Assembly: GCA_903813345.2 (NCBI GenBank)
Contig: CAIIXF020000001.1
Location: 20,646,001-20,710,000 of the forward strand
Reading direction: 5' to 3'
DNA from: Owenia fusiformis
Taxonomy: Eukaryota
DNA: 64,000 bases
Part shown: positions 1 through 58,590 of the stretch, in pieces
Numbering within the stretch: the first letter of the stretch is position 1
Layout: the number at the start of each line of letters is the position of its first letter
The notes under the pieces: model-generated
What the model was told of the DNA's origin: nothing
Seen by the model: the letters and a program-made list of their open reading frames with translations, nothing else
Databases searched by the model: none
Program-made: the position numbers and the translations under genes

Positions 1-327
1 AGAATTTTCAAAATTAGCGTACATGTACTCTTAATATATAAAAAGATGTAAATTATTTTCTTTGTCCTCAATGTGTTTAAGTACTTTGAATATTCCAAAA
101 TCCAAAAAGTGTAAAAGTAGTTATCATGCATATGTGCATGATGTTCTCATTTCATCTAATGTCTGTTCAAAACATGTATTTATTGATCTTGATATTGTGT
201 TTTGATATGGATTTTTAGATCGTTGATCTCTTTCTATACTTGCTATCAATATGTTTTTGTTTCTTCCATGTATGCACCATATTATATCTGCTCCAACCTC
301 ATATATTTTTGTTTATTTCATGTACAG

Positions 328-3300
328 ACAAAGGCGGGCAGAGTGGAAGTGGGCAGTTGATCGGGCAGCCATTGCCTCACGGTGGACCTGGCTCCAGGCT
401 CAAGTATCTGACCTAGAATATAGAATACGGCAGCAAAGTGACATTTATAGGCAAATACGAGCAACTAAGGGCTCAGTTGTTCTTGGAGAATATACACCAC
501 CTGATGATTTACTTCAAGGCAAAGCCAAATCAAACAAAAAATTATCTCCTTTAGAAGCTAAAATTGCCAATCTTGAAAGACAGAATGAATTGTCTCCGTG
601 TAATATATCAACGCTGCTCAGCAATGTTGATAAGCAGTCTACGAAGCTGACTCAGTCATTAGGTAATGTCTATTCCCCTGTACAATGTTCTAATAGGGGT
701 CGTAATCAGACTCCACCTGCCAAACCTATCAATGGAGTAATAGACCCTGGATCCTCACAGTCTAATCCAACACCTAGCATAGACACTACAGATAGCAAGA
801 CCCCAGCAGTAAACCCCCCATTAATAACAGTAGGAGATGCATCCCCTTGTATTGATAACACTTGCCAATCAGCACGGTGTCGACCAGTGCGCAGCTATAG
901 AAAACGGAAATTGCTACGAACTGCGGGGTTGCATCAGTTAAATCGTAAAGCAGCGCGGGCATCTACTATAAAGTGTCAGTGCTACCCACCATCTACCCCT
1001 TGTGCAATGTGTGGGGGAAGGTACAACAATAAACAAGCTATGGACTCTGACAACATGCCATTAAATGAGAGAGTGGGCCTCCTTGATCCAGCGTTCCATC
1101 CAGTACTCTCATTCTCACAAGGTAAATTAATATCATTATTGAATTATCAATATTATGAATTACAATTTGCTGATTTAATCTCATGATATTGCCATGGTTT
1201 CCTGGTGGATGTTAATTTTATATAAAAGGCAGTGATCTCCCACTATTAAGCAAGTGGGGACCCACCTGAGATATTGACAATAAGCTTATGCCCACCTGAA
1301 AATCCATTTGCACCTACTTGAAAATTGGCATATTTTGTTTGGTCTGAAGTGTGAATATGAGAATCTTGCAAATCTGTTGAGAATACTGCAAGAATTTTAA
1401 TTTGGGTTATCTAGAATCAGAATAGACACACAAAATTCATTGTTTTGAAATGCTACTGTGTCCTTATTCCTTACCTTCCCCTTTCCAATCATAAATTCAA
1501 AGCCTAGGACAAAACAGCATTTGATGATTCTTTTTTGGCCCCTCTCAACTATTAAATGGTTGATTACTTTGTGTAGTTCATGGTGAATACTAAGTTTCTG
1601 TGGTTTGATAATTTAATACATGTATTTGATGGTTGCTATTCATTAGTTAACAGCATTGCTGAAAGGACAGCCTGTGATTGTGATAAACATATCTAGTTGC
1701 AGACTGATACACTTGATAAAAGTAATTATGCTGCATACATCATACATACTTATTATATCTGAACAGCAGCCACACCCTTTTTACAGAAGTCTAGCTAGGT
1801 AGTTTTGCTCTGTAGAATATTAATGTATGGATGCCTTAAAGGAATATGAAACTAAACATCTCTAAATCTTTATGTCCAAGAAAACATGGCAAGTTATATA
1901 ATTAACCCATACAAATGAAATTAGTACAGCCATCTTTATTGGGGTGTTTCGTAAGAGTGATTACTAAATGCAGTTTTCAGCAGTTTTATTGTCATTAGCT
2001 TCCCCTCGTATCAAACTTTGATACAATAGTTTTTGGCATAATGTGAAACTCAGTTACTGACAAAGATATCATAGATGCTTTGATTAATTTTTGACTGCAA
2101 AGCAGCCCAGGTCATCTTGGTTTCTCAACAGACCAGGTAGACTTTTTATTTTAATACTAGAGGAAAGATTAGGGAGTCCATATTCTGCTGCTGCAAAGCT
2201 AGGTGTTAAATTGAATTTTGCCTAATTTGCATTTTAGAATTTCAATGTGTATTACACCTTGTAGATCAAGATGGCTAAATGAAGGAATGAAAATGGTTGA
2301 AATAACATGCAAGATTTGCTCTAATACATTTAAGTAAATGTTCTTGCACTGCAGTCAGAATTGAAATTAGCTAAACAATCTTTTTCTTGTTACATTCAGG
2401 AATTAATTGAGGTATGATTATGATATCATCTACAGTTCTACACATTTGTTCCAAATATATGGTTAAAATAAAAATGGTATTGACAGCTCAGGTTCTGCGA
2501 CCTGACTGGCGAATAATATGATTTGATACTGACATCAATCTTTTGTTATCATCCATTCAAAATGTGACAAGATTTTATGAAATAATAATTTTTTTACTTG
2601 TTTTAATCCATTTATTGTTCTCCAGGAATAAACCGACATTTATCCTGGATCGTAATTACACGAATGAGCCATTGATTTCCAATTCTGTTGTGTGCACAGA
2701 AATAGGTTATACTGAAACAGGCATTTACAATATGCCAGACATTTTATCAAATAGTTGAGTACATTGGTCTGTAACTAAGTGTTCTGGGTTGAAGAGTTAT
2801 GGCTATTCTGCCACTCACTTACAATTTCATGTTACCCTGATTACATGTATGATAATGGGACATGTTCCCCATGGTTGTTTCTGGCGCTTAAACCCGACTG
2901 TTAAACACTGGCTCATTTCCTCTTAGTTAGAAATAATCGTTAAATTCTAGGAGTTGACTACCTGAAGCCATGGCCTAAAATTCGCATGGAGCCCTTTCAG
3001 TTCATGGGTTATTGTTAGGTTCCATGAATTACATTAGTCTTGGTTAGAAGAGGTTTTAAGGGAGAGCTGCTTTGCTTTTCAATCAATTGTGTTCAATACC
3101 CTAAGCCATATTAGAAGCAATGTGAACTTTTCATGTATGTATGGTTTTCAGAAATATAATCCTACACATGGTGTACTGACGCATAAATCCAGGCCCAAGT
3201 AATTAATAGAAATCTGAAAACTCAAGTCATCTCATATTCCACCTTTTCTGGTGTGCCCGATTGTTAAAAGACCTAATAAAAAGTTATTGTAAACATTTCT

Positions 3301-6300
3301 TATGACCACAAATCTATGGGTGACCTAAATTTGTTTTTTTCAACTTTTTGGTAAAATAACAGCTGCTATGCTGAACTTGTTAACTTCCAGATGTTGTATT
3401 TCAGGATGTTTCATTTGCTTTGAGGTGGCAAACATTAATGAATTGTGACATGTTTCAGATGTTCCTTTACCAGTGCACTTTGAGTCCTTGTTGAAGACTG
3501 GGGAGTGGCAGAACAAACCATCACCTCGTACTGAGAAAAGGTAAAAACATTTTTTCCATTCTGATATTACTTCCTGGTGGAGTACAAGTCATGTGGGTTT
3601 TATATAATGAAAGTATGACGTGTCACATTCATCCAATGATGTATTTCATGATGTGTTCAAATGATTCGTGTCCCCATATTTCCTACCTGCATCTTTCACA
3701 TCAAGTCTAGGCTGTCACAAAAATAAAACCATGCCCTGCCAAAAAAGAAATTGACCGACCATCAATTTGAAAAAGGCAGGGATTAGAACCAGACAATTGT
3801 TTTAGCCTGGCCTTGTAACAAACGATTCAAAATGTTGTAGTCAAAATTACTTCCATCAAAGAGTGATTAGTGCTGTTATCCTAATATATCAGCATTTTTA
3901 TAAACAATTCTTCACTCTCCAAACTTCTCTGCTTCAAGCATTTTGAGTCATTAGAGGATTATTTTTGTTCAGCTGGATAGTGCTTGTTTTATTTGGAAAT
4001 TTCTAGAAGATGGGAAAGATGTAGCCTTGCCCAAATTGGTCTCTTTTACTTGGGCAAGGCTAGGGAACAAATTGAAAGGTTTGTTTTCAGTTACAAAACC
4101 ACATGCACATTTTAGATTCTTGTTTGGATTCATGTTTACAATTTTTTATCATACTTTTACAAAGGTGCTTTATTGTTGTCATCTTGTTAATTTTATCATT
4201 ATCACATCATTTTTAAAGGAATCCAGTACTACATTGTGCTATCATTATTATCATCAACAATCAGTCACTTGTTTTGACCAAACAAAATCTAGTATTATAC
4301 TGTAATTAGGTCCAGGTACTATAGTATTACATCAATTGCACATGATGATCTTAATTTGAGATAAGTAATTGCTTTCAATCATATGCAATCTTATCCAGGC
4401 TGGGAGTCCTATTTTAAAGCTGTTTATATTCCTACATATGTAGTCATTAATCAAGGTAGCAATATAAGGTGTGGTGGAGCACAAGATAACCAAATCCTCC
4501 AATCAGAATATTGTTTAAAGCTGGACATCGCTCCAAAACGCAATATGTTGACATATATTGTTTTTACACTTTTAAGCTCTAATATAAAGTTTATGTAAAT
4601 AAAAATTGTTTTTTTCTGCGTTATATCAAAGAACAATCATTTAGTTAAAAAAAAAAAAGGAGAATACGGGATTCGAACCCGGGCCTCCCGCGTGCTAAGC
4701 GAGAATTGTACCCCTAGACCACCGTCTTCTAATGAATGTTGGAAGTAATTAAACGCTACTTATTTTGAATGCTATGATTCGGAAGTGACGTCACGTTCTT
4801 CATTTAGAAACTTTTCCAAAATCATATCGTCGGCGCCGATCGAAGCAATTCAATGAATAATCTTTGAAATGACACATTTATCGTAAGTATTTCTACACAA
4901 GATTTGCCCCATTTGTTCATCATTCTATAATCTTTCATTAGGCTCAAAATGATAAAGTTCACCCCCGAAACAACCCAAGGATTGCGTTTCGGAGCGCAGT
5001 CCAGCTTTAAGTCAAACAACTGGACAAAATTCTTTATTTTCTGTTATCAGAGGAAAACTTTTTTCTTTCAAGTTTATTAAAAAAAACATGCACTTCCAAA
5101 AACAGTCCTTCCTCTCATCACAATATATTGAAGTATTCCCACTATACATTTTTTATTGTCTAGTTATCCTCAATGGGTGCTAGTGAGATTTTCATTTTCA
5201 CAATTTCCATCATTCTACTGAGTTCAAATAGGATTTGTGGATACAAGCTTATTTCCAAAATCTGAACTGGGTGCATCAATGCCAGGAAGATCACTTTATA
5301 ATAATAAGCCACAATACTCTCAATTATAGTATGATCCGTAAAATGAAGCCTTCTGATTGGTCAGTTCTTGTGCTGTGCCAATCTGTATTGCTACTGAGAT
5401 TGTCCCCAGTGATCATCTCCATCGCGATACAGAAAATATTGGTACGGAGGGGGCAATCTCAGTAGCAATACAGAGGATCACACAATAAAAATGTTATTGA
5501 ATGATTTGAAGTACAATACAGGATATATTCTGTCTCGATATTCTGTATTGGCACTCGACTTTTTCTCATTCCAATACAGAATTTCTCGAGTAGAATATAT
5601 CCTGTATTGCACTTCAAATCATTCAATAACTTATAATATTTTATATGAATGATGAAGTGATAATTATTAATTTTAGTCCTTACGTAAAAAGAATATTGCT
5701 ATATGTGCATTATATCATTTATTTATTTGTTATTGTACATGTTAGTCGAGAGGTGGTAATTATACTAGCATAATATGTACAGATGGAAATTACCATCCTG
5801 TTATATAAAATGAATTACATATAATTCTCTGTTGGATACATATGAGACTCAGTATGTTGTAATAAAATAATCATTGATGCAGTATGTTAATGCAACAGTA
5901 TCTGCTGATGCTACTAGACTCACTGGGAAATAATCAATACATTGCAGCCATGTGCTTGTGAATCATAGCGCCAACTAACAATCTCTTCTCTTGCTATGCT
6001 ATGACTTTTATAACACACAACTAGAACCTTTTGGCATGACACGTTCTTGCAAGTTCAATTCTTATAAATAAAAAATGTATCCACTGAATAAAACAGCTAG
6101 GGTATCGGTGTAATGCTTGTTAAAACATCGAACAGTTATCTTTTCAAGTTGAATGTCACAGTGACCTTGGCAATGTCATGCCTTGTTACATGGTGAGAAA
6201 AGAGTTCACATTGTAAATAGAGTTAGCTTTTATCTCATTAAATAAGCAATGTAGTACACAGTAAATATTCTACTTTAACAGCTCGAAATTGCTAGTTACA

Positions 6301-9300
6301 TTGATATCTCAGTATCATCGTTTTATCTGCCCTTGCTAGATACATAATGCTAGCTGAGTTGAATGTCTTAACAGTTACACTATACTGTACTCCATAAAAT
6401 TACATTAACTAAACTCTATTAAAGTACCAAGTAGAAAATCTGACCTCCTTTAATATAAAATCCACATCTTCATAGATTGATAAATATTTTATCTAGTATT
6501 TTTTCATTATAAATTGCATTCCTTTTATTATGCCACTTCCCCATGTCAAACTTTAGTAAAAGGTTAATATTTTCCTGGTAAATGTCAATGGCCAATAATG
6601 CACTGTAAATTAGGTTTTATTTTTATTTTTATATTCAGTGACTGTTTCAGTGGGATCAGAGTAAATCCCTTGCTCAATGATAATAACTCTATTTATAAGT
6701 AAATACCAGAATAACAACATATAGTCTTGGATATTCAAGGTTACATAGAAATTGCCTGCACTAAAGATAGAGATGCCCTGATGATATAATTACTTTCCCT
6801 ACATACTGCATATAGGTTCAAGTAATCTGGAATATTCTATTAGTTGTTCTGTTTCTCTAATCTGAATGAACACAGCAATGTTGCATTCAGCAGAATTCTT
6901 ATCCTCTGGGCTTGTGTGTTAGATGTAGCATTAAGACATGTAAGAAATACTCTGTGGACTTATGGTAATCTTGTATTATCCCTATCCCCTCAGAGGATTG
7001 TCCAGTTGTCCCCCATGTCACTTTTTGCAGCAAAATTATAATCGAAAAACATAAAATGCAAACTAATATTGAAGCTGGCTTATGATGATTCCATGTGTGA
7101 TTCTAGGAAGTATTCTGGTGCGGATGATCACAAGAAGTATATGCGCAAGTACAACAACAAAAGTCCAACCACTGCTGCCATTCTCAATGCCTCTACAAGT
7201 GAGAACTAGTTTACATTCTGTCATATAGTAAACAATTTTGTGAGAACTAGTTTACATTCTGTCATATAGTGAACAATTTTGTGAGAACTAGTTTATATTC
7301 TGTCATATAGTGAACAATTTTGTGAGAACTAGTTTACATTCTGTCATATAGTGAACAATTTTGTACAATGAATCCATTTTTCATTTATTTTAGAACTTAC
7401 CCGAATCCTGAACTCTTATTCAATTTCCGATAGTATTCTTGAAACTAAACAATATTTTGCTGTCATCTTAACTATATGATATTTAATAAATAATTATTTT
7501 GATGTTAGCAGTCCTATTATAATGTTTATATAGGATGCACAAGCTAGATGATGATAAACCTACTGTTTCAACTGAAAAATGAGGACAAATCACTCGCCGA
7601 ACTGATAGCTTGGAGCCACAATCCATTTTGTACTATGGTTGGTGCACCCTTTGGACCCTGGGGTCATATGAATACATTGATCCATATAAATATATGGCTA
7701 CTTGTAAAAACAACATACTCTTGTTTTAGAATTGCGGATCAAATATAGTGAAAGAGCACTGTCAAAGAGTGGTGGTTCCCTTCCTGGAACTCCAAGACTG
7801 TCTGCTTCAGATAGTAGAATATGTCGATCTGAGTCGAAGAATAGGCGCAAGGCTGCCAGGCTGGCTATGGGTAAGTCTGGAAAAGTGCTTATGATTGCTT
7901 GTAGAGTTATTGGGAAATATAGAAGTTAGCATTTCCTAATTTAGGAATTAAAATTTCCTTCAGAAAAGATTATAATGATAATGGTTGTGATATATAAGCT
8001 AGATGATGATCCACTTACTGTTTCAACTGAAAAATGAGGACAACTCACTCGCCGAACTGATAGCTTACAAATGCATAAAGAAAATTTCTGGTAGCCTCAT
8101 TTATAAAGTTTCTTATTTAAGGTTTCATATATGTTGCGTTTCAGCTGCTCTTACTAAAAAAGAGCGTCGAATGTCTTTGAATGATCGCTTGAGACGCACA
8201 GTGGGAACCCCATCTCCTGGGCCAAGAGAAACCCCACCACCTGGCATGGCTCAGAGCTGCCCCAGTGGGACTCTCAAGGAAATGAAGGAAGCGTTAATTA
8301 AAAAGAGGCGAATGGAAAATGCTTTTGACATCAATAATATTGTAATTCCATATGGCATGGCAGCATCATCAAGAGTTGAAAAGCTACAGTATAAGGAAAT
8401 CATAACACCAAAGTAAGTTGAAATTCAACTTCCAGTTTTTTGATCTTTTCTTTTCATAAGTGGAAGTACATAGCCTAGAGCAAAGTTAATCTTAGAGGAG
8501 AGTTCATCATAGGTGCTGAGAGAAATATCATCCCGACTCTTGTGAAAACATGAGATCAAATGTCTTGTATTGTATTTATCAAACATGTGTCTTAGTAAGA
8601 AAATATTAAAGCACATATGTTCCTATTACCCATGAAAACAGGAAATGGAAAGTGTGTGAATAATTATATAATGAAATCATTATTTATAGATGGCGTGAAG
8701 TAGATCCTTTCCATGATGCTCTCGTGACAAAGACCACTGAGAATGGACCAATAAAACCTGAAGAGGTTGCACAAGTGAATGGTACAATAACTTCTGAGGA
8801 ACAGAGTGTAAAAGAAGCAGAGACTGGAGTTGAGACAGTTGCTGCAGCTGTCCAACCAGGCCCTGTTGTCACAACACCAACTCCCCCATCTTCACCCCAG
8901 GAAGCAACAGAAGAGGTATGTATGCTTTTACAACGCTAATAGATTTTGGAGGGTTTTGAGTTGTTTTTTTTCAGTTGGAACTCATTTGGTTTGTATGATG
9001 AAATATTTTTATCCAGATAGCTCTTATCGACAGTTTATCGATATTGAACAATATTTTCCACCATTTTGGACGAGGTTTACTCTAGTTACCTTCATCATGT
9101 TGTGGACCATTGAACTTAAATATGTAAAACCATGCAAGTTCCCAAATATGATAACATTGTCCTGTTTATCTTGCAGATTGAGGACACGAGTGATGAGTTC
9201 TACAGTATGAAACATCTGCCTTGTGAGGTCCAGGAGAAAAAACGTTTTATCTCGTATCTGGTTACACCCACAAGTCGAGGCCGTTCAGCCAATAGCAGGT

Positions 9301-9953
9301 CTGAACACAGAACTGATAGTCGTACGAGAACAGACAGTGGGGCAACAACCCCTGATCCATTATCTCCAGAGGCTAGTCTTAATGACAGTAGTATATTTGC
9401 CTCAATGAACAGTACCTCAAGTTTGCAATCAGTCAGTTCCCCTTTGGCATCTCCAGTGACTCCAAACTCATCCTCCTCTAAGTTAGCTTCTCTAGAAGAG
9501 CACAGCATTTTGGGGCGAAAACGTAGTGGATCTCTGTCACAGAAACGTGAGCGCACTATATCCTGTATGAGTGATGATAATATGGTACGCTCTACATCAG
9601 CGACGCCAGATGTTGATGTACAAGTGACCCCATGGGAGACAGCTAAATTCCCATTGAGCGAGAATGACCTAGTGACCTATCTAGAAACTCCACCACCTCC
9701 CCGTGCTCAGCCAGTTATCACAACCTCTGTACTGCCAATCAGACACCATACACATTACCACCATCAGACCTATGACACCACCCCTGTCAGTAGTAGGGCT
9801 TGCTCCCCTAATTTCATAACATCCCCTGAGTCTGATGAATTCTTTGATGATGACCCAAATGATCCAGAATATGATCCTGAGTGGACTGTAGTGAGTGGGG
9901 TACGTCAACCTGCAAAATCTACAGGCCTTGTGCTTAAACTAGCAAAGCGTTGA
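328..9953 (+). CDS. KANSL1: KAT8 regulatory NSL complex subunit 1 (NSL1), 5'-incomplete. Exons 328-1121, 3459-3540, 7107-7198, 7730-7870, 8145-8412, 8690-8915, 9177-9953
   Basis: Motifs [62 protein letters not shown] and PEHE-type [17 protein letters not shown]. All introns are GT-AG and phases are consistent when joined. Confidence 0.93.
4519..5006. mobile_element. Non-autonomous TIR element with TTAA target duplication (Kolobok-like)
   Basis: TTAA at 4515-4518 and 5007-5010. Imperfect ~26-bp TIR agctggacatcgctccaaaacgcaat / attgcgtttcggagcgcagtccagct, with AG...CT termini. Confidence 0.75.
4659..4729 (-). pseudogene. tRNA-like sequence (Pro-type D arm, AGC/Ala anticodon, broken acceptor stem) followed by a T12 run
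   Basis: Minus strand gaagacggTGGTCTAGGGGtacaattctcgcttAGCacgcgggaggcccgGGTTCGAATCCcgtattctcc then T12. A box, B box and anticodon arm are present; the acceptor stem pairs poorly. Confidence 0.75.
5323..5637. repeat. Double-hairpin element, probably a non-autonomous repeat
   Basis: Inverted arms 5382-5407/5450-5474 and 5493-5550/5571-5630. Confidence 0.6.
7199..7364 (+). repeat. 41-bp tandem repeat x4 starting at a KANSL1 splice donor
   Basis: Unit gtgagaactagtttacattctgtcatatagt(a/g)aacaatttt at 7199, 7240, 7281, 7322. Confidence 0.97.
7540..7612 (+). ncRNA. Intronic box C/D snoRNA, copy 1
   Basis: Terminal stem caagcta/tagcttg; box C ATGATGA 7548-7554; D' CTGA 7572-7575; C' ATGAGGA 7579-7585; D CTGA 7602-7605; sense to the host gene. 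Confidence 0.88.
7995..8067 (+). ncRNA. Intronic box C/D snoRNA, copy 2
   Basis: Terminal stem taagcta/tagctta; C 8003-8009; D' 8027-8030; C' 8034-8040; D 8057-8060; ends 77 nt upstream of the acceptor at 8144. Confidence 0.9.
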
Positions 9954-56100: not shown

Positions 56101-58590
56101 CAAGGAACATAGTGCAGAAAATCCAAAATCTGTCTAACCAAAGATTATTGTTAATTTTAAATTTCTGTTTGTTTTGTATAAAGGGCACAAGACAACACAG
56201 ATTAATAAATAAGCCTACCTAATTCTTTTAACTGTTGCTTGAGTTCAGTGTTTTCTTTGGCCGATTCCTCCCTCTTGGTAGTGCTCGATATAAGCTGCTT
56301 CTCCAAGTTGAAACATCGTTGCTCTAGAAATCAGTGAAGGATACAATGTAGGGAATAAGCATGTTAAACATTATATTGTCTAACTTCCTAGAAACTGATT
56401 GACAAGACAAACATTTGATGAAAAGTAAAATGAATAAATCTTTAATAAAAGACATTCATATTCTGATAAATGGCTTAATAATGCCTTTTACTTTGAATGC
56501 AATATATAATACAAATGTGCAAATGTCTCTTTTAGCACAGATAAAGTAGAAGGATAGGGTTTACAACATATGTAAGTTATAACAGAAAAGGTAAAATGAA
56601 ACACAAGATCAACAGTTAAACCAGTTAAAACATTAAGACAATATAAGTTCACCCTTAAAACAAGTGCAAGCTTCTAGACGAGTCAAACGTAGAATATGAA
56701 ATACCATGTAGCTTGTGTAAAGAAATATATATTGGAGAGACAGGCAGAATATTAGATGTAAGATTGACAGAACATAAGAAAGTTGTCTCTGATTGTGAGT
56801 TGACAAGATACACAAGAAATGTTAAGAAAGTACAGTCTGTTACACTGCTTAAAACTGTTAATTCTCAAAAAAATAACATGGGGGACAGACTTCAAATTAC
56901 AAGAGGGTACAGGCTTATTGCACAAAACACTTAATAATCTGAAATATACAAATGTCATTCGTGTGCAATATGAATATGTTTTTCTATATATTATGGCACA
57001 ATGGTCTATAGATTTCTTATTTTTCAGGTTCAACTGCTTGCCTTTGAAGCAGTGTAACAAACTGGGAAATCAGCAGTCATTGATCATGTGCATCGCTCAG
57101 ATGAACTTTTTAACAGATTGGGACAATGTAAAGGTTATATACAATGAAGGTCACAGAAATAAACATTGGATAGTCAATTTCCATCAAGAAAGTGTATGAA
57201 TAGAGACTCAGGCAATCACCAATTATCAAGTGTGGAAACGAAGGGCTTATTAATTCTCGAGGTCAATTTACAACTTCAAGCAGTTTTGAGAAAGTCAAGC
57301 AAGCATCTTACTCCCCTAGTTCAACAAGTTAAACCTAGTCTGGGCCTTATTTCTTATCTGACATTTCTTGTGGCCCGCCCTAGGTTTAACATCCCTGCCT
57401 ATTCGGCCCTTGATGCAAAAAATTTTAATGATGGCCTATGGCAGCGCATAGAATTTCATGCACGTTTTATTAATAACTGATAGCGAGAATTTGCAACCAA
57501 TGAAAGCATAGCACGGAAGTTAAACCCAACCACTGAAACAAGAACACTCAGATTATAAATGAAAGCCGTGGTATTGGGTTTAACTTGTTGAACTACTTAC
57601 TCCCCATGAAACTGAAACAAACTAGACCATGGGCTTTCTCTGTACATAGTACAAAGTAGTGTTGTCGCGATGTGCCATAATCGTACATCGATGCATCGGC
57701 AATTTTCAGTAGTAAACATCGATGCACATCGCGATGTACATCGAGAAAAAGTTCGAGAAAAGTGCACTGAAATACCGAACGCTAATGCACTAAAATATCG
57801 AACAGAACAAATTAATAAGAGTACGCTGGTACATCCGGGAACATAGTAACTGTGAAATGAAAGTAATTTTTTTTAGATTAATGGTTCATTTCGACTAGCT
57901 AAAAAAGTTTTAAAGCGAAAGAATATCAGCAAACATTTGAAAATGAAATAAGACATGAAAAAAGGTAAGCAATTTGCGTCAAAATAAGATAAGAAAGGGC
58001 GATTTTTAGCAAATTAAATTTTTTTAAAAACATCGATGTTTTGTTTCAGACATCGATGCATCGCCAGAACCAGCTTTGGCGATGTATATCGCGATGTATC
58101 GATTAATCGCGACAACACTAGTACAAAGTGAAACCAATGTATCTAGTGACCAAAGGCAGCATTAAAGTGCCATCGTGTTAAGTACACTAACACGTAAATT
58201 AGATAAAGAAGAAGAAGAACTAATTGAAAGCCCATGACTAGACTAATGGAGAATAACATTCGTTCAATGAACTTTTAAATCAAATATTTCACATGCCTTA
58301 TATCACATATTTAAAAGTAACATGCGTCTAATTGCATAGAAAATGATAAATTACGGAAAATATAAGCCGGTGTTTTAAAATTTTTAAAAAAATCAGCTTT
58401 TTTATTTTTGTTTTCTAAACAAACCTTTATCAATGAGAAGTTCTTCGTTCTTCTGTTTCAACTCATCAACGCTGCTTTGGAGGCTATTGATCTTTGATTC
58501 TAGCTTACATTTAACCTCATCAGACAGTGCATCGACCTCCGGGGGCTCTAAAACGGAGGCTAGCACATTTTCTGAGATTTTGGCGGCCAT
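29199..58590 (-). CDS. TPR: Nucleoprotein TPR / Megator (nuclear basket), about 49 coding exons; first exon 58590-58425, last 29518-29199
   Basis: Long coiled coil with APTAAATSKLLKSGKTLSQVY, EIEQKAPML, SIEELQEQNQRL, QRDMYRVLL, KYEREMMLHA, RFLRREKEIA, LKKIGRKY and TANIRPT. Acidic tail with VPSTPTL, DGFAEAVSSP, GRSVPSTP and an RGG-rich end. Exons were walked with consistent GT-AG phases. Confidence 0.96.
30616..30724. repeat. 21-bp tandem repeat x5
   Basis: Unit acatgtcatataaaatgtatg. Confidence 0.95.
39843..39973 (-). mobile_element. Miniature Helentron-type element, family B; related copies at about 18301-18415, 33334-33445, 34770-34830, 48370-48426 and 52019-52164
   Basis: Minus strand: tttttATGTCACCAccaaaagTGGTGACAT (subTIR plus inverted repeat) ... 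TGGTGACATttt, hairpin gcatattaatgc, terminal CTTGT. Confidence 0.7.
41537..41990. repeat. AT-rich repeat element with internal inverted repeats
   Basis: Ends tatcccatggtt / aaccataggata; internal aaaccatcgaatatcac versus gatattcgatggttt (twice). Confidence 0.45.
43077..43188. repeat. 55-bp tandem duplication
   Basis: ttaaaatatggtcg(t/c)ataaatgatcccttttcaaaatctgtgttttgtgccat occurs twice. Confidence 0.9.
43777..45451. repeat. 30-bp minisatellite (about 19.5 units at 43777-44364 plus about 1.7 units at 45399-45451), split by a mariner remnant
   Basis: Unit acattgtttacaacagtggtactatagtgt. Confidence 0.97.
44365..45396 (-). mobile_element. Internally deleted, degenerate mariner with long diverged TIRs
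   Basis: TA TSD 44363-44364 / 45397-45398. TIRs start cagggtgttccaaaagtaacaggactggt and end at cccggggcaac. Minus-strand remnants IHLDRAPA, HAPYSSDHATSNFYL and VFESWIQ. Confidence 0.9.
48457..49022. mobile_element. Older hAT-type MITE with GGGAC subterminal repeats
   Basis: Termini tagggatgtcacg / catgagatctcta. The 8-bp flanks match only 5/8 (ttaataac / acattaac). Confidence 0.55.
50879..51339. mobile_element. hAT-type MITE
   Basis: 14-bp TIR taggggtgagacga / tcgtctcaccccta; perfect 8-bp TSD gttgctat; TCGA(G/A) subterminal repeats. Confidence 0.93.
53486..53894. mobile_element. Possible old Kolobok-like element
   Basis: TTAA|AGG ... CCT|TTAA ends, but little further TIR match. Confidence 0.3.
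54047..54913. mobile_element. hAT-type MITE
   Basis: 16-bp TIR taggggtcacacggtt / aaccgtgtgaccccta; perfect 8-bp TSD caattcac; CGGTT/AACCG subterminal repeats. Confidence 0.93.
56692..57240 (+). mobile_element. Penelope-like retroelement 3' fragment (GIY-YIG endonuclease), interrupted
   Basis: YEIPCSLCKEIYIGETGRILDVRLTEHKK; after an insertion, DWDNVKVI and MNRDSGNHQLSSV, typical of the PLE C-terminus. Confidence 0.8.
57317..57595. mobile_element. Mutator-like MITE
   Basis: 19-bp TIR tagttcaacaagttaaacc / ggtttaacttgttgaacta; 10-bp TSD cttactcccc at 57307-57316 and 57596-57605. Confidence 0.85.
57657..58120. mobile_element. hAT-type MITE
   Basis: 15-bp TIR tagtgttgtcgcgat / atcgcgacaacacta; perfect 8-bp TSD gtacaaag; CATCG/CGATG subterminal repeats. 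Confidence 0.93.

Follow-up and report, generated by a model that had tools for sequence, protein, structure and literature searches.

Box C/D snoRNAs of the animal SNORD class are stable RNAs of 60–100 nt that associate with fibrillarin, NOP56, NOP58 and SNU13; they carry C, D′, C′ and D boxes, have guide segments directly upstream of D and D′, and are encoded in the sense orientation, one per intron, in spliced introns of protein-coding genes. The usual hosts of snoRNAs are translation-related or non-coding genes, and vertebrate intronic C/D snoRNAs have an optimum at roughly 70–80 nt from the 3′ splice site. SNORD18 (U18, snR18) pairs with the LSU helix region UUGAAACACGGACC, where its target is an A that we take to be A649 in yeast and A1313 in human. 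For Drosophila 28S rRNA, Table 1 of PMC11014333 gives methylations at Gm789, Am796, Am799 and Cm813 and assigns snoRNA:CD43 to Am796 and Am799; human 28S-Am1310 is a methylation site documented in passages of PMC8677024, PMC10939407, PMC13736010 and PMC8393311, and 1310 is unmentioned in PMC8522698. Annelids and molluscs are barely covered by snoRNA and rRNA-modification catalogues, and among the matches listed in our literature search there was no study of Owenia snoRNAs and no annelid or mollusc snoRNA catalogue.

Within 64 kb of Owenia fusiformis DNA (hereafter the window), we find two elements that are very probably paralogous, intron-encoded box C/D snoRNA genes in a KANSL1-like pre-mRNA, predicted to guide methylation of LSU rRNA. 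Both are 73 nt long and lie on the + strand, as do all features described below. Copy 1 (7540–7612) was delimited by reading the sequence, a repeat search, folds and a scan for boxes and stems; copy 2 (7995–8067) has the same parts at +455. In each, a C box of the form RUGAUGA (ATGATGA, AUGAUGA in RNA; 7548–7554 and 8003–8009) lies near the 5′ end and a D box, CUGA (CTGA in DNA; 7602–7605 and 8057–8060), near the 3′ end, enclosed by a 7-bp terminal stem (7540–7546 with 7606–7612, and 7995–8001 with 8061–8067) that is retained in both minimum-energy folds. Internally, a CUGA D′ box (CTGA, 7572–7575; 8027–8030) is followed after 4 nt by the C′ box UGAGGA (TGAGGA, 7580–7585; 8035–8040), which is the consensus save for one base. 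The two copies have the same guides: UCACUCGCCG upstream of D (7590–7601, pairing part 7590–7599; 8045–8056 in copy 2) and UGUUUCAA upstream of D′ (7561–7571, pairing part 7564–7571). In boxes, stem, length, guide placement, orientation and the occupation of one spliced intron each of a protein-coding gene, the elements resemble the SNORD class; unlike that class, they match no Rfam 15 family at threshold and their host is a chromatin regulator.

Comparison of the copies bears out what a first-pass annotation of this DNA had claimed: two near-identical islands in otherwise unrelated introns, each with all four boxes and a 7-bp stem whose outermost pair differs in a compensatory way, and with substitutions that avoid boxes and guides. 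Specifically, the repeat search aligned 7534–7611 with 7989–8066 (78 nt, 91% identical, spaced 455 nt), and the surrounding introns contain no alignable sequence outside this repeat; the likeness stops sharply at the snoRNA borders. The 73-nt units differ at six positions (7540, 7556, 7557, 7560, 7589 and 7612 in copy 1 numbering), all of them outside the boxes, the inner six stem pairs and the pairing bases of the two guides (10 in the D guide, 8 in the D′ guide). Two of them form the outer stem pair 7540/7612, where copy 1 has C-G and copy 2 has T-A (U-A in RNA); the remaining four are all in spacers. The 16-mer made up of D guide and D box occurs exactly twice in the 64 kb, against an expectation of 0.14, and none of 100 shuffled sequences contained it at least twice. 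A window-wide scan for a C box, a D box and a stem of at least 5 bp returned four candidates, among which only copies 1 and 2 have at least 10 bases of rRNA complementarity. Fold energy is marginally unusual at most (copy 1, z = −1.98; copy 2, z = −0.66).

The host gene was mapped by tblastn of P0007, an Owenia fusiformis protein of 1214 amino acids to which the last host exon is 100% identical. Its C-terminal part (residues 411–1214) extends over 308–9953, with exons at about 308–1120, 3458–3541, 7099–7198, 7730–7869, 8144–c.8416, c.8667–8918 and 9174–9950. Copy 1 lies in the intron 7199–7729, defined by this exon map and by reads at 7730 whose loose ends carry the sequence of the preceding exon, which stops at 7198; copy 2 lies in the next intron, 7870–8143, which has GT..AG ends and whose 7869-to-8144 joint is spanned by 15, 13 and 11 spliced reads in three stranded RNA-seq runs. 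The exon between them (7730–7869) encodes residues of about 745–792 of P0007 and has an RNA depth of 8.5–17 in the three runs. Both copies are thus in the sense orientation in consecutive spliced introns, their 3′ ends 117 nt (copy 1) and 76 nt (copy 2) upstream of the respective 3′ splice site, and the distance in copy 2 fits the vertebrate optimum. Pfam PF15275 is precomputed for P0007, and its PEHE domain (residues 946–1057) scores 32.5 bits, slightly below the 34-bit Pfam cut-off. The three best named Atlas clusters of P0007 score 0.94–0.95; two of them bear the name KAT8 regulatory NSL complex subunit 1, with PEHE present in 43–80% of their members. A PDB sequence search with P0007 gave no matches. 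Judged by its length, its C-terminal PEHE and its KANSL1-named nearest relatives, the host is KANSL1-like, an assignment that, as against MSL1, is made from these resemblances. The placement of the islands in consecutive KANSL1 introns is upheld by the joints at 7198/7730 and 7869/8144 and by the KANSL1-named clusters of a PEHE protein. No title or abstract among the matches listed in the literature search linked KANSL1 to a snoRNA.

The three raw RNA runs used carry the same species label; among the listed runs that contain the sequence, none is recorded as RNA. A hint of expression comes from a single read in run X23 that spans about 7540–7612, the depth over the remaining intron being 0; in X22 and X24, copy 1-spanning reads number 0 and the depth across the copy 1 intron is 0. 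The libraries look to be of the mRNA type.

Both guides had been proposed to match conserved LSU rRNA, and we compared them with a stand-in, the complete rDNA unit of a eukaryote other than Owenia (L027). Positions 3–12 of the D guide pair without interruption, by 10 Watson-Crick pairs, with LSU 86–95 (CGGCGAGUGA), the best match across the SSU, 5.8S and LSU of this unit, whereas the two bases adjoining box D (AA) are unpaired with rRNA. The duplex is equalled by 376 of 20,000 shuffled and 249 of 20,000 random guides (about 1–2%), and it supplies at least 10 nt of stand-in LSU complementarity covering the fifth base upstream of box D. Paired to that base is G88, the second G of ACGGCG; the predicted target in Owenia is the second G of ACGGCGAGUGA, at about position 90 near the 28S 5′ end. 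To our knowledge, this site is unmethylated in yeast and human. It has no counterpart in the Drosophila 28S sites of PMC11014333 Table 1, of which the lowest is Gm789, nor is there a 28S site near 85–95 in the planarian RiboMeth-seq passages of PMC11649923. Literature searches with the guide and target strings gave no report of rRNA methylation among the matches listed (0 matches for the strings in RNA letters), and those for Gm88 to Gm93 gave nothing on rRNA among the matches listed. All but one of the matches to the strings contain the DNA form, and the ones assessed by title and abstract appear to be PCR uses of rDNA; one match is a longer DNA string in an unrelated preprint. The proposed complementarity is thus borne out as 10 bp on the stand-in LSU, but methylation of its target is absent in the organisms checked.

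The D′ guide makes 8 Watson-Crick pairs, through positions 1–8, with UUGAAACA in GUCUUGAAACACGG, which places A751 of the stand-in LSU, the middle A of GAAAC, opposite the fifth nucleotide; in Owenia 28S, methylation is predicted at the middle A of UUGAAACACGG. This part of the earlier proposal also stands on the stand-in rRNA, but the duplex is short: its pairs are AU-rich, and 4169 of 20,000 shuffled guides equal 8 pairs, so it is not significant by length. G744, A751, A754 and C768 of the stand-in have the bases and spacing (7, 3, 14) of Drosophila Gm789, Am796, Am799 and Cm813, and by this alignment the D′ target A matches Drosophila 28S-Am796; it also corresponds to human 28S-Am1310. The predicted target would be the same conserved A, at the junction of GUCUUGAA and ACACGG, as that of CD43 and the human Am1310 guide, a likeness by target and not by guide sequence; relative to CD43, the Owenia D′ duplex has only 8 bp and ends before CGGACC. 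U18 pairs with the same helix region, its target (fly Am799) lying three bases downstream of the D′ target, and gave no match to either copy in an Rfam search up to E 10. Two other D′ targets were judged less likely than UUGAAACA: UUGGGGUAGUA, which needs four G-U pairs, and GAACAGUA (LSU 1661), in a segment that differs in animals.

An Rfam search, suggested as a check in the first-pass annotation, gave no match to Rfam 15 at gathering thresholds anywhere in the 64-kb window. In E-value mode, C/D families made up 37 of the 40 sub-threshold rows, a generic C/D resemblance. The best of these were Plasmodium snoR10 (RF01587; 25.6 bits against a cut-off of 65) and snR60/Z15 (RF00309; 23 against 41), in which the common C/D layout aligns end to end and the guide regions differ; with scores below cut-off and mismatched guides, neither is demonstrably kin to the Owenia pair. 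With every Rfam 15 family below its gathering score, both for these copies and for the homologous loci described next, the family is defined only here.

Relatives of the pair occur elsewhere in eukaryotes. We scanned metagenome contigs with the pattern TGATGA-N25-50-TCACTCGCCGAACTGA (C box, D guide and D box), which leaves the terminal stem free and makes the D guide identical in all relatives by construction, so that its conservation is built in. The 13 matches fall in 10 loci, and 11 of them have the box C/D layout with a terminal stem: a scripted check found stems of 5–10 bp in 10 of the 13, and at one further locus (L008) inspection by eye showed a stem of 7 bp with a larger offset. Random pairs of flanks gave a stem of at least 5 bp in 2015 of 20,000 trials and one of 7 bp in 378. 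The stem sequences vary among the loci, that is, they covary. Two matches (L003 and L005) are GC-rich and stemless and were set aside as chance. The D′ guide is not common to the relatives. Eight homologous loci (30,793 bases) gave no matches to Rfam 15, and an LSU-motif scan of viral contigs gave none. Since tblastn of the window's ORFs against the 10 loci found no matches, the relatives lie in differing hosts, and KANSL1 hosting is known from this window only. One locus (L009) has as its host a BET bromodomain gene closest to those of bivalves (Mya arenaria, 78%).

These results bear on three other explanations of the pair. It is unlikely, in our judgement, that the elements are real box C/D RNAs whose D guide does something other than methylate LSU G~90, such as a chaperone or processing pairing with pre-rRNA, or pairing of all 12 bases (UUCGGCGAGUGA) with another RNA (a spacer, snRNA or mRNA). 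Such a role would agree with the empty position in the fly table and in the literature matches and with the unpaired bases next to box D; however, ten perfect pairs at guide positions 3–12 with the universally conserved LSU core form the canonical geometry, seldom equalled by random guides, the stand-in rRNAs offer no better target, and unmapped sites are possible in rarely studied phyla. Less probable still is a multicopy family with its functional genes elsewhere in the genome, of which one or both copies in the window would be inactive, dispersed members (retrocopies or pseudogenes). Word depth in run X2 is 92–120 over 7562–7617 against 11.4 in the flanks, and a 258-nt contig matching 7540–7589 carries a different upstream flank; this suggests about 5–10 copies sharing the 3′ half, plus one locus with the other flank, and dispersal would also account for the sharp ends of the similarity between the copies. 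In both copies, however, the boxes, guides and stem are all intact, the outer stem pair has changed in a compensatory way, and the other four substitutions lie in spacers. Each copy is also in sense in a spliced intron, with a workable spacing to the 3′ splice site, and one read fits the borders of copy 1.

That the pair is a chance or repeat-derived fragment that happens to look like a snoRNA is an idea to which we give almost no credence: the weakly unusual fold energy, especially in copy 2, and the lack of a curated family match would suit it, but it has to contend with four boxes in the right order and spacing, a 7-bp covarying stem, 10 nt of rRNA complementarity and independent relatives whose stems covary. 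The paralogous box C/D snoRNA reading of the first-pass annotation is thus favored by boxes, stem, compensatory pair, sense introns and rRNA complementarity together.

For two such methylation-guide genes we propose the following course. Both snoRNAs would be transcribed within the KANSL1-like pre-mRNA; the boxes, together with the 7-bp terminal stem, would form a C/D kink-turn bound by the core box C/D proteins. Exonucleases would trim the spliced intron down to a 73-nt RNA, which would accumulate. Pairing of the D guide with CGGCGAGUGA would make the second G of ACGGCG the base at which fibrillarin acts, and pairing of the D′ guide with UUGAAACA would lead to methylation of the middle A of GAAAC.

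The pair belongs to an ordinary gene class with a well-known mechanism, and its D target site is possibly new. The prediction for Owenia is that the conserved equivalent of Am1310/Am796 is methylated, together with one possibly new site near the 28S 5′ end. A snoRNA appears to have been duplicated into neighboring introns of a chromatin-regulator gene, and its relatives in unrelated hosts illustrate movement from host to host. Somewhat tentatively, we suggest an uncatalogued D-guide family common to at least an annelid and a bivalve-like animal, guiding a lineage-restricted 2′-O-methylation at the second G of ACGGCGAGUGA in the LSU 5′ domain, in which the snoRNA moved between hosts and a second (Am1310-type) guide was gained in Owenia. 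If this is true, the D-guide family would represent a lineage-restricted modification in a core segment of rRNA.

Two 73-nt units lie on the + strand of the window, at 7540-7612 (copy 1) and 7995-8067 (copy 2). A repeat search returned them as one family of two copies (78 nt, 91% identity, 455 nt spacing) and detected no further similarity between the stretches around them. On the + strand each unit opens with a 7-nt stem arm (CAAGCUA or UAAGCUA) and a G, followed by a C box (AUGAUGA), a 17-nt spacer with UACUGUUUCAA at its 3′ end, a D′ box (CUGA) and AAAA, a C′ box (UGAGGA), a 16-nt spacer with UCACUCGCCGAA at its 3′ end, a D box (CUGA), and a 3′ stem arm (UAGCUUG or UAGCUUA) that is complementary to the 5′ arm. 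Six positions differ between the copies (7540, 7556, 7557, 7560, 7589 and 7612): the outer stem pair 7540/7612 switches between C-G and U-A, and the other four differences all fall in the spacers, none in the boxes or the rRNA-pairing bases. The first-pass annotation had read the pair as box C/D snoRNAs; the four boxes, the 7-nt stem arms and the compensatory outer pair are all present. Box C/D RNAs have little secondary structure, so the mildly unusual fold energies seen here (z -1.98 for copy 1, -0.66 for copy 2) are normal; the terminal stem is kept in the minimum-energy folds of both copies. We consider it highly probable that these units are real box C/D snoRNA genes.

Comparison of the window with all 4227 families of Rfam 15 (cmscan) gave nothing at the gathering thresholds. 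When E-value mode was applied to 7500-8110, 37 of 40 rows were box C/D families aligned end to end with both units; the best of these sub-threshold scores in this region was 25.6 bits against a 65-bit cut-off, and the guide regions in the alignments disagree with those of the units. By sequence, the units resemble generic C/D RNAs and fall outside every curated Rfam 15 family.

Three stranded RNA-seq runs of the same species label were aligned to 7450-8260. The exon at 7730-7869 is covered at a depth of 8.5-17 and is joined at 7869 to 8144 by a GT..AG splice (15, 13 and 11 reads in the three runs), and reads at 7730 run on into sequence matching the exon that ends at 7198. Throughout 7450-8260 the first mate maps to the - strand, which by the usual stranded chemistry puts the host RNA on the + strand. 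Together, splicing and strand data put the units in two consecutive introns (7199-7729 and 7870-8143), both in the sense direction. Their 3′ ends lie 117 nt (copy 1) and 76 nt (copy 2) from the 3′ splice site; vertebrate intronic box C/D snoRNAs are processed best at about 70-80 nt upstream of this site, an optimum that copy 2 fits exactly and copy 1 roughly. The exact 5′ splice site of the first intron is also the start of a tandem repeat with a 41-nt period (7199-7362, about four units, 98-100% identical), and since each unit opens with GTGAGA, a donor-like motif is repeated.

The last exon of the host is 100% identical to P0007, an annotated Owenia fusiformis protein of 1214 aa, and tblastn places residues 411-1214 of this protein at 308-9950 in seven exons. 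Its single Pfam match is PEHE (residues 946-1057; 32.5 bits, slightly below the 34-bit cut-off), PF15275 is precomputed for it, and of its three best named ESM Atlas clusters (all three scoring 0.94-0.95) two carry the name KAT8 regulatory NSL complex subunit 1; a sequence search of solved structures gave no match to it. We accept the host as KANSL1-like on this similarity, and the proposed location in consecutive introns of this gene is borne out by the spliced reads and the P0007 match. RNA reads, and also contigs of a further sequencing run (X2), differ from the window at exon positions 7739, 7758, 7773, 7836, 7842 and 8203, with T>A at 7739 in every read that covers it in the three RNA runs. 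Strain or allele variation, rather than editing, seems the better explanation of these mismatches, and the identity of only 94-98% between P0007 and most window exons (tblastn) is in line with such differences.

Relatives were sought in metagenome contigs with a pattern of TGATGA, 25-50 bases and the 16-mer of D guide (the rRNA-pairing segment upstream of the D box) plus D box. Thirteen matches in 10 loci were found, where by our own arithmetic about 3 are expected by chance; two of them (L003, L005), on GC-rich contigs and with stems of only 1-2 bp, were set aside as apparent chance matches. The other 11 (one each in L001, L002, L004 and L006 to L009, and four in L010) have an internal C′-like UGAUGA or UGAGGA and a D′-like CUGA or CUUA. 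Terminal stems are present in all 11 although the pattern did not include them: 10 of 5-10 bp by script, and one of 7 bp at a larger offset, by eye, in L008. Among flank pairs drawn at random from this DNA, 2015 of 20000 reached 5 bp and 378 of 20000 reached 7 bp. Stem sequence varies from locus to locus, the covariation expected for genuine C/D RNAs. In the loci of these 11 matches, as in the window, no Rfam family reached its gathering threshold. Because the pattern itself fixes the D guide, its identity across the relatives says nothing independent about conservation; the D′ guide found in the window copies is absent from every relative. None of the 10 loci has coding sequence in common with the window, so the host genes differ. 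L009 has its unit 3′ of exons of a BET bromodomain gene, on the strand that encodes this gene; the gene's best matches are bivalve (Mya arenaria at 78%, followed by Dreissena and Mercenaria). L002 is the closest relative found and has the C′-to-guide stretch AUGAGGACAAC in common with the window copies. On a 3.5-kb contig, L010:1813-3317 holds four related copies spaced by 322, 804 and 322 nt, an arrangement suggesting that a two-copy unit was duplicated into a tandem cluster. L001:693-749 and L004:2301-2357, on contigs of sister metagenome samples, have an identical core and adjoin exons for an Arg/Asp/Ser-rich protein; slight differences in the upstream flank mark them as alleles or recent paralogs.

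For rRNA, genome contigs were scanned for a conserved 24-base LSU motif, which yielded archaeal rRNAs and eukaryotic rDNA contaminants. By Rfam, L027 contains a complete eukaryotic rDNA unit (SSU 895-2978, 5.8S 3365-3523, LSU 3737-7526), used here as a stand-in that may differ from Owenia's own rRNA. The record that contains this unit (L027:895-7526) is classed as a bacterial MAG; many short contigs of bacterial assemblies hold eukaryotic LSU 5′ ends, and the motif also occurs in records archaeal by title (Thermoproteota, Heimdallarchaeota, Thorarchaeota and others).

The proposed LSU complementarity of the D′ guide was recovered as eight Watson-Crick pairs between guide positions 1-8 and UUGAAACA (L027 LSU 747-754), with A751 facing position 5. 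By length alone this duplex is insignificant (equalled in 4169 of 20000 shuffles). L027 G744, A751, A754 and C768 have the bases and spacing (7, 3, 14) of Drosophila Gm789, Am796, Am799 and Cm813, listed in Table 1 of a RiboMeth-seq map, where Am796 is flagged as a site conserved in human, Xenopus and Dictyostelium (PMC11014333). Despite its short duplex, the D′ guide is thus predicted to land on a meaningful site. From the spacing and human site numbers, we take the human counterpart of Am796 to be 28S-Am1310, an equation backed by passages in four reports that describe 28S-Am1310 as a real, partly variable site (PMC8677024, PMC10939407, PMC13736010, PMC8393311). We put the chance of actual methylation at the D′ target at about even.

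The D guide has its best site in the L027 SSU, 5.8S and LSU at LSU 86-95, CGGCGAGUGA, where positions 3-12 form 10 contiguous Watson-Crick pairs, in support of the complementarity near the 28S 5′ end that the first-pass annotation had proposed. G88, the second G of ACGGCG, faces position 5. An equally long run with its start within three bases of the box arose for 376 of 20000 shuffled and 249 of 20000 random guides; the two A's adjoining box D are unpaired with L027 rRNA. We know of no methylation site near this target in yeast or human. Table 1 of the Drosophila map has no 28S site below 789 (PMC11014333), and passages of a planarian RiboMeth-seq study give none near 85-95 (PMC11649923), so the target would be new, at least for model organisms. 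Actual methylation there is even odds or slightly better; a non-methylating or non-rRNA role of the D guide, which overlaps the snoRNA gene reading, is unlikely.

Inactivity of one or both copies, as members of a dispersed family, is less likely still. X2 coverage is even (introns 11.4, exons 16.1), so X2 is probably DNA. Its word depth reaches 92-120 over 7562-7617, and a 258-nt X2 contig matches 7540-7589 with two differences and a different upstream flank. The simplest reading is several further genomic copies, about 5-10 in number; should X2 be RNA, expression would explain the excess instead, and either reading is compatible with a snoRNA gene family. In RNA-seq run X23, depth is about 0.8, 1 and 0.8 in three bins over 7534-7617 and zero in the remaining intron, a single read over about 7540-7612, the predicted RNA borders, and only a hint; X22 and X24 have no read over the copy 1 unit. 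These three runs are labelled plain cDNA RNA-seq, from which little snoRNA signal is expected. That the pair is a chance look-alike is very improbable. The 16-mer of D guide and D box occurs exactly twice in the 64 kb against 0.14 expected (at least two in 0 of 100 shuffles), and a simple search of the entire window on both strands, requiring RUGAUGA followed by CUGA and a terminal stem of at least 5 bp, gave four candidates, with rRNA complementarity of at least 10 bases only in copies 1 and 2. Elsewhere, 58451-58465 nearly matches the D′ guide and D′ box (two mismatches) and has no box C/D context; this is consistent with chance (at least three matches in 1 of 100 shuffles).

For the snoRNA genes that we favor, the standard account is the most likely: the RNAs would be freed from the KANSL1-like introns after splicing, would assemble on the C/D and C′/D′ motifs, and would guide fibrillarin to LSU rRNA. 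Copies 1 and 2 show no departure from textbook snoRNA biology; they belong to an uncatalogued family in a host atypical for snoRNAs, with one target site that may be new.
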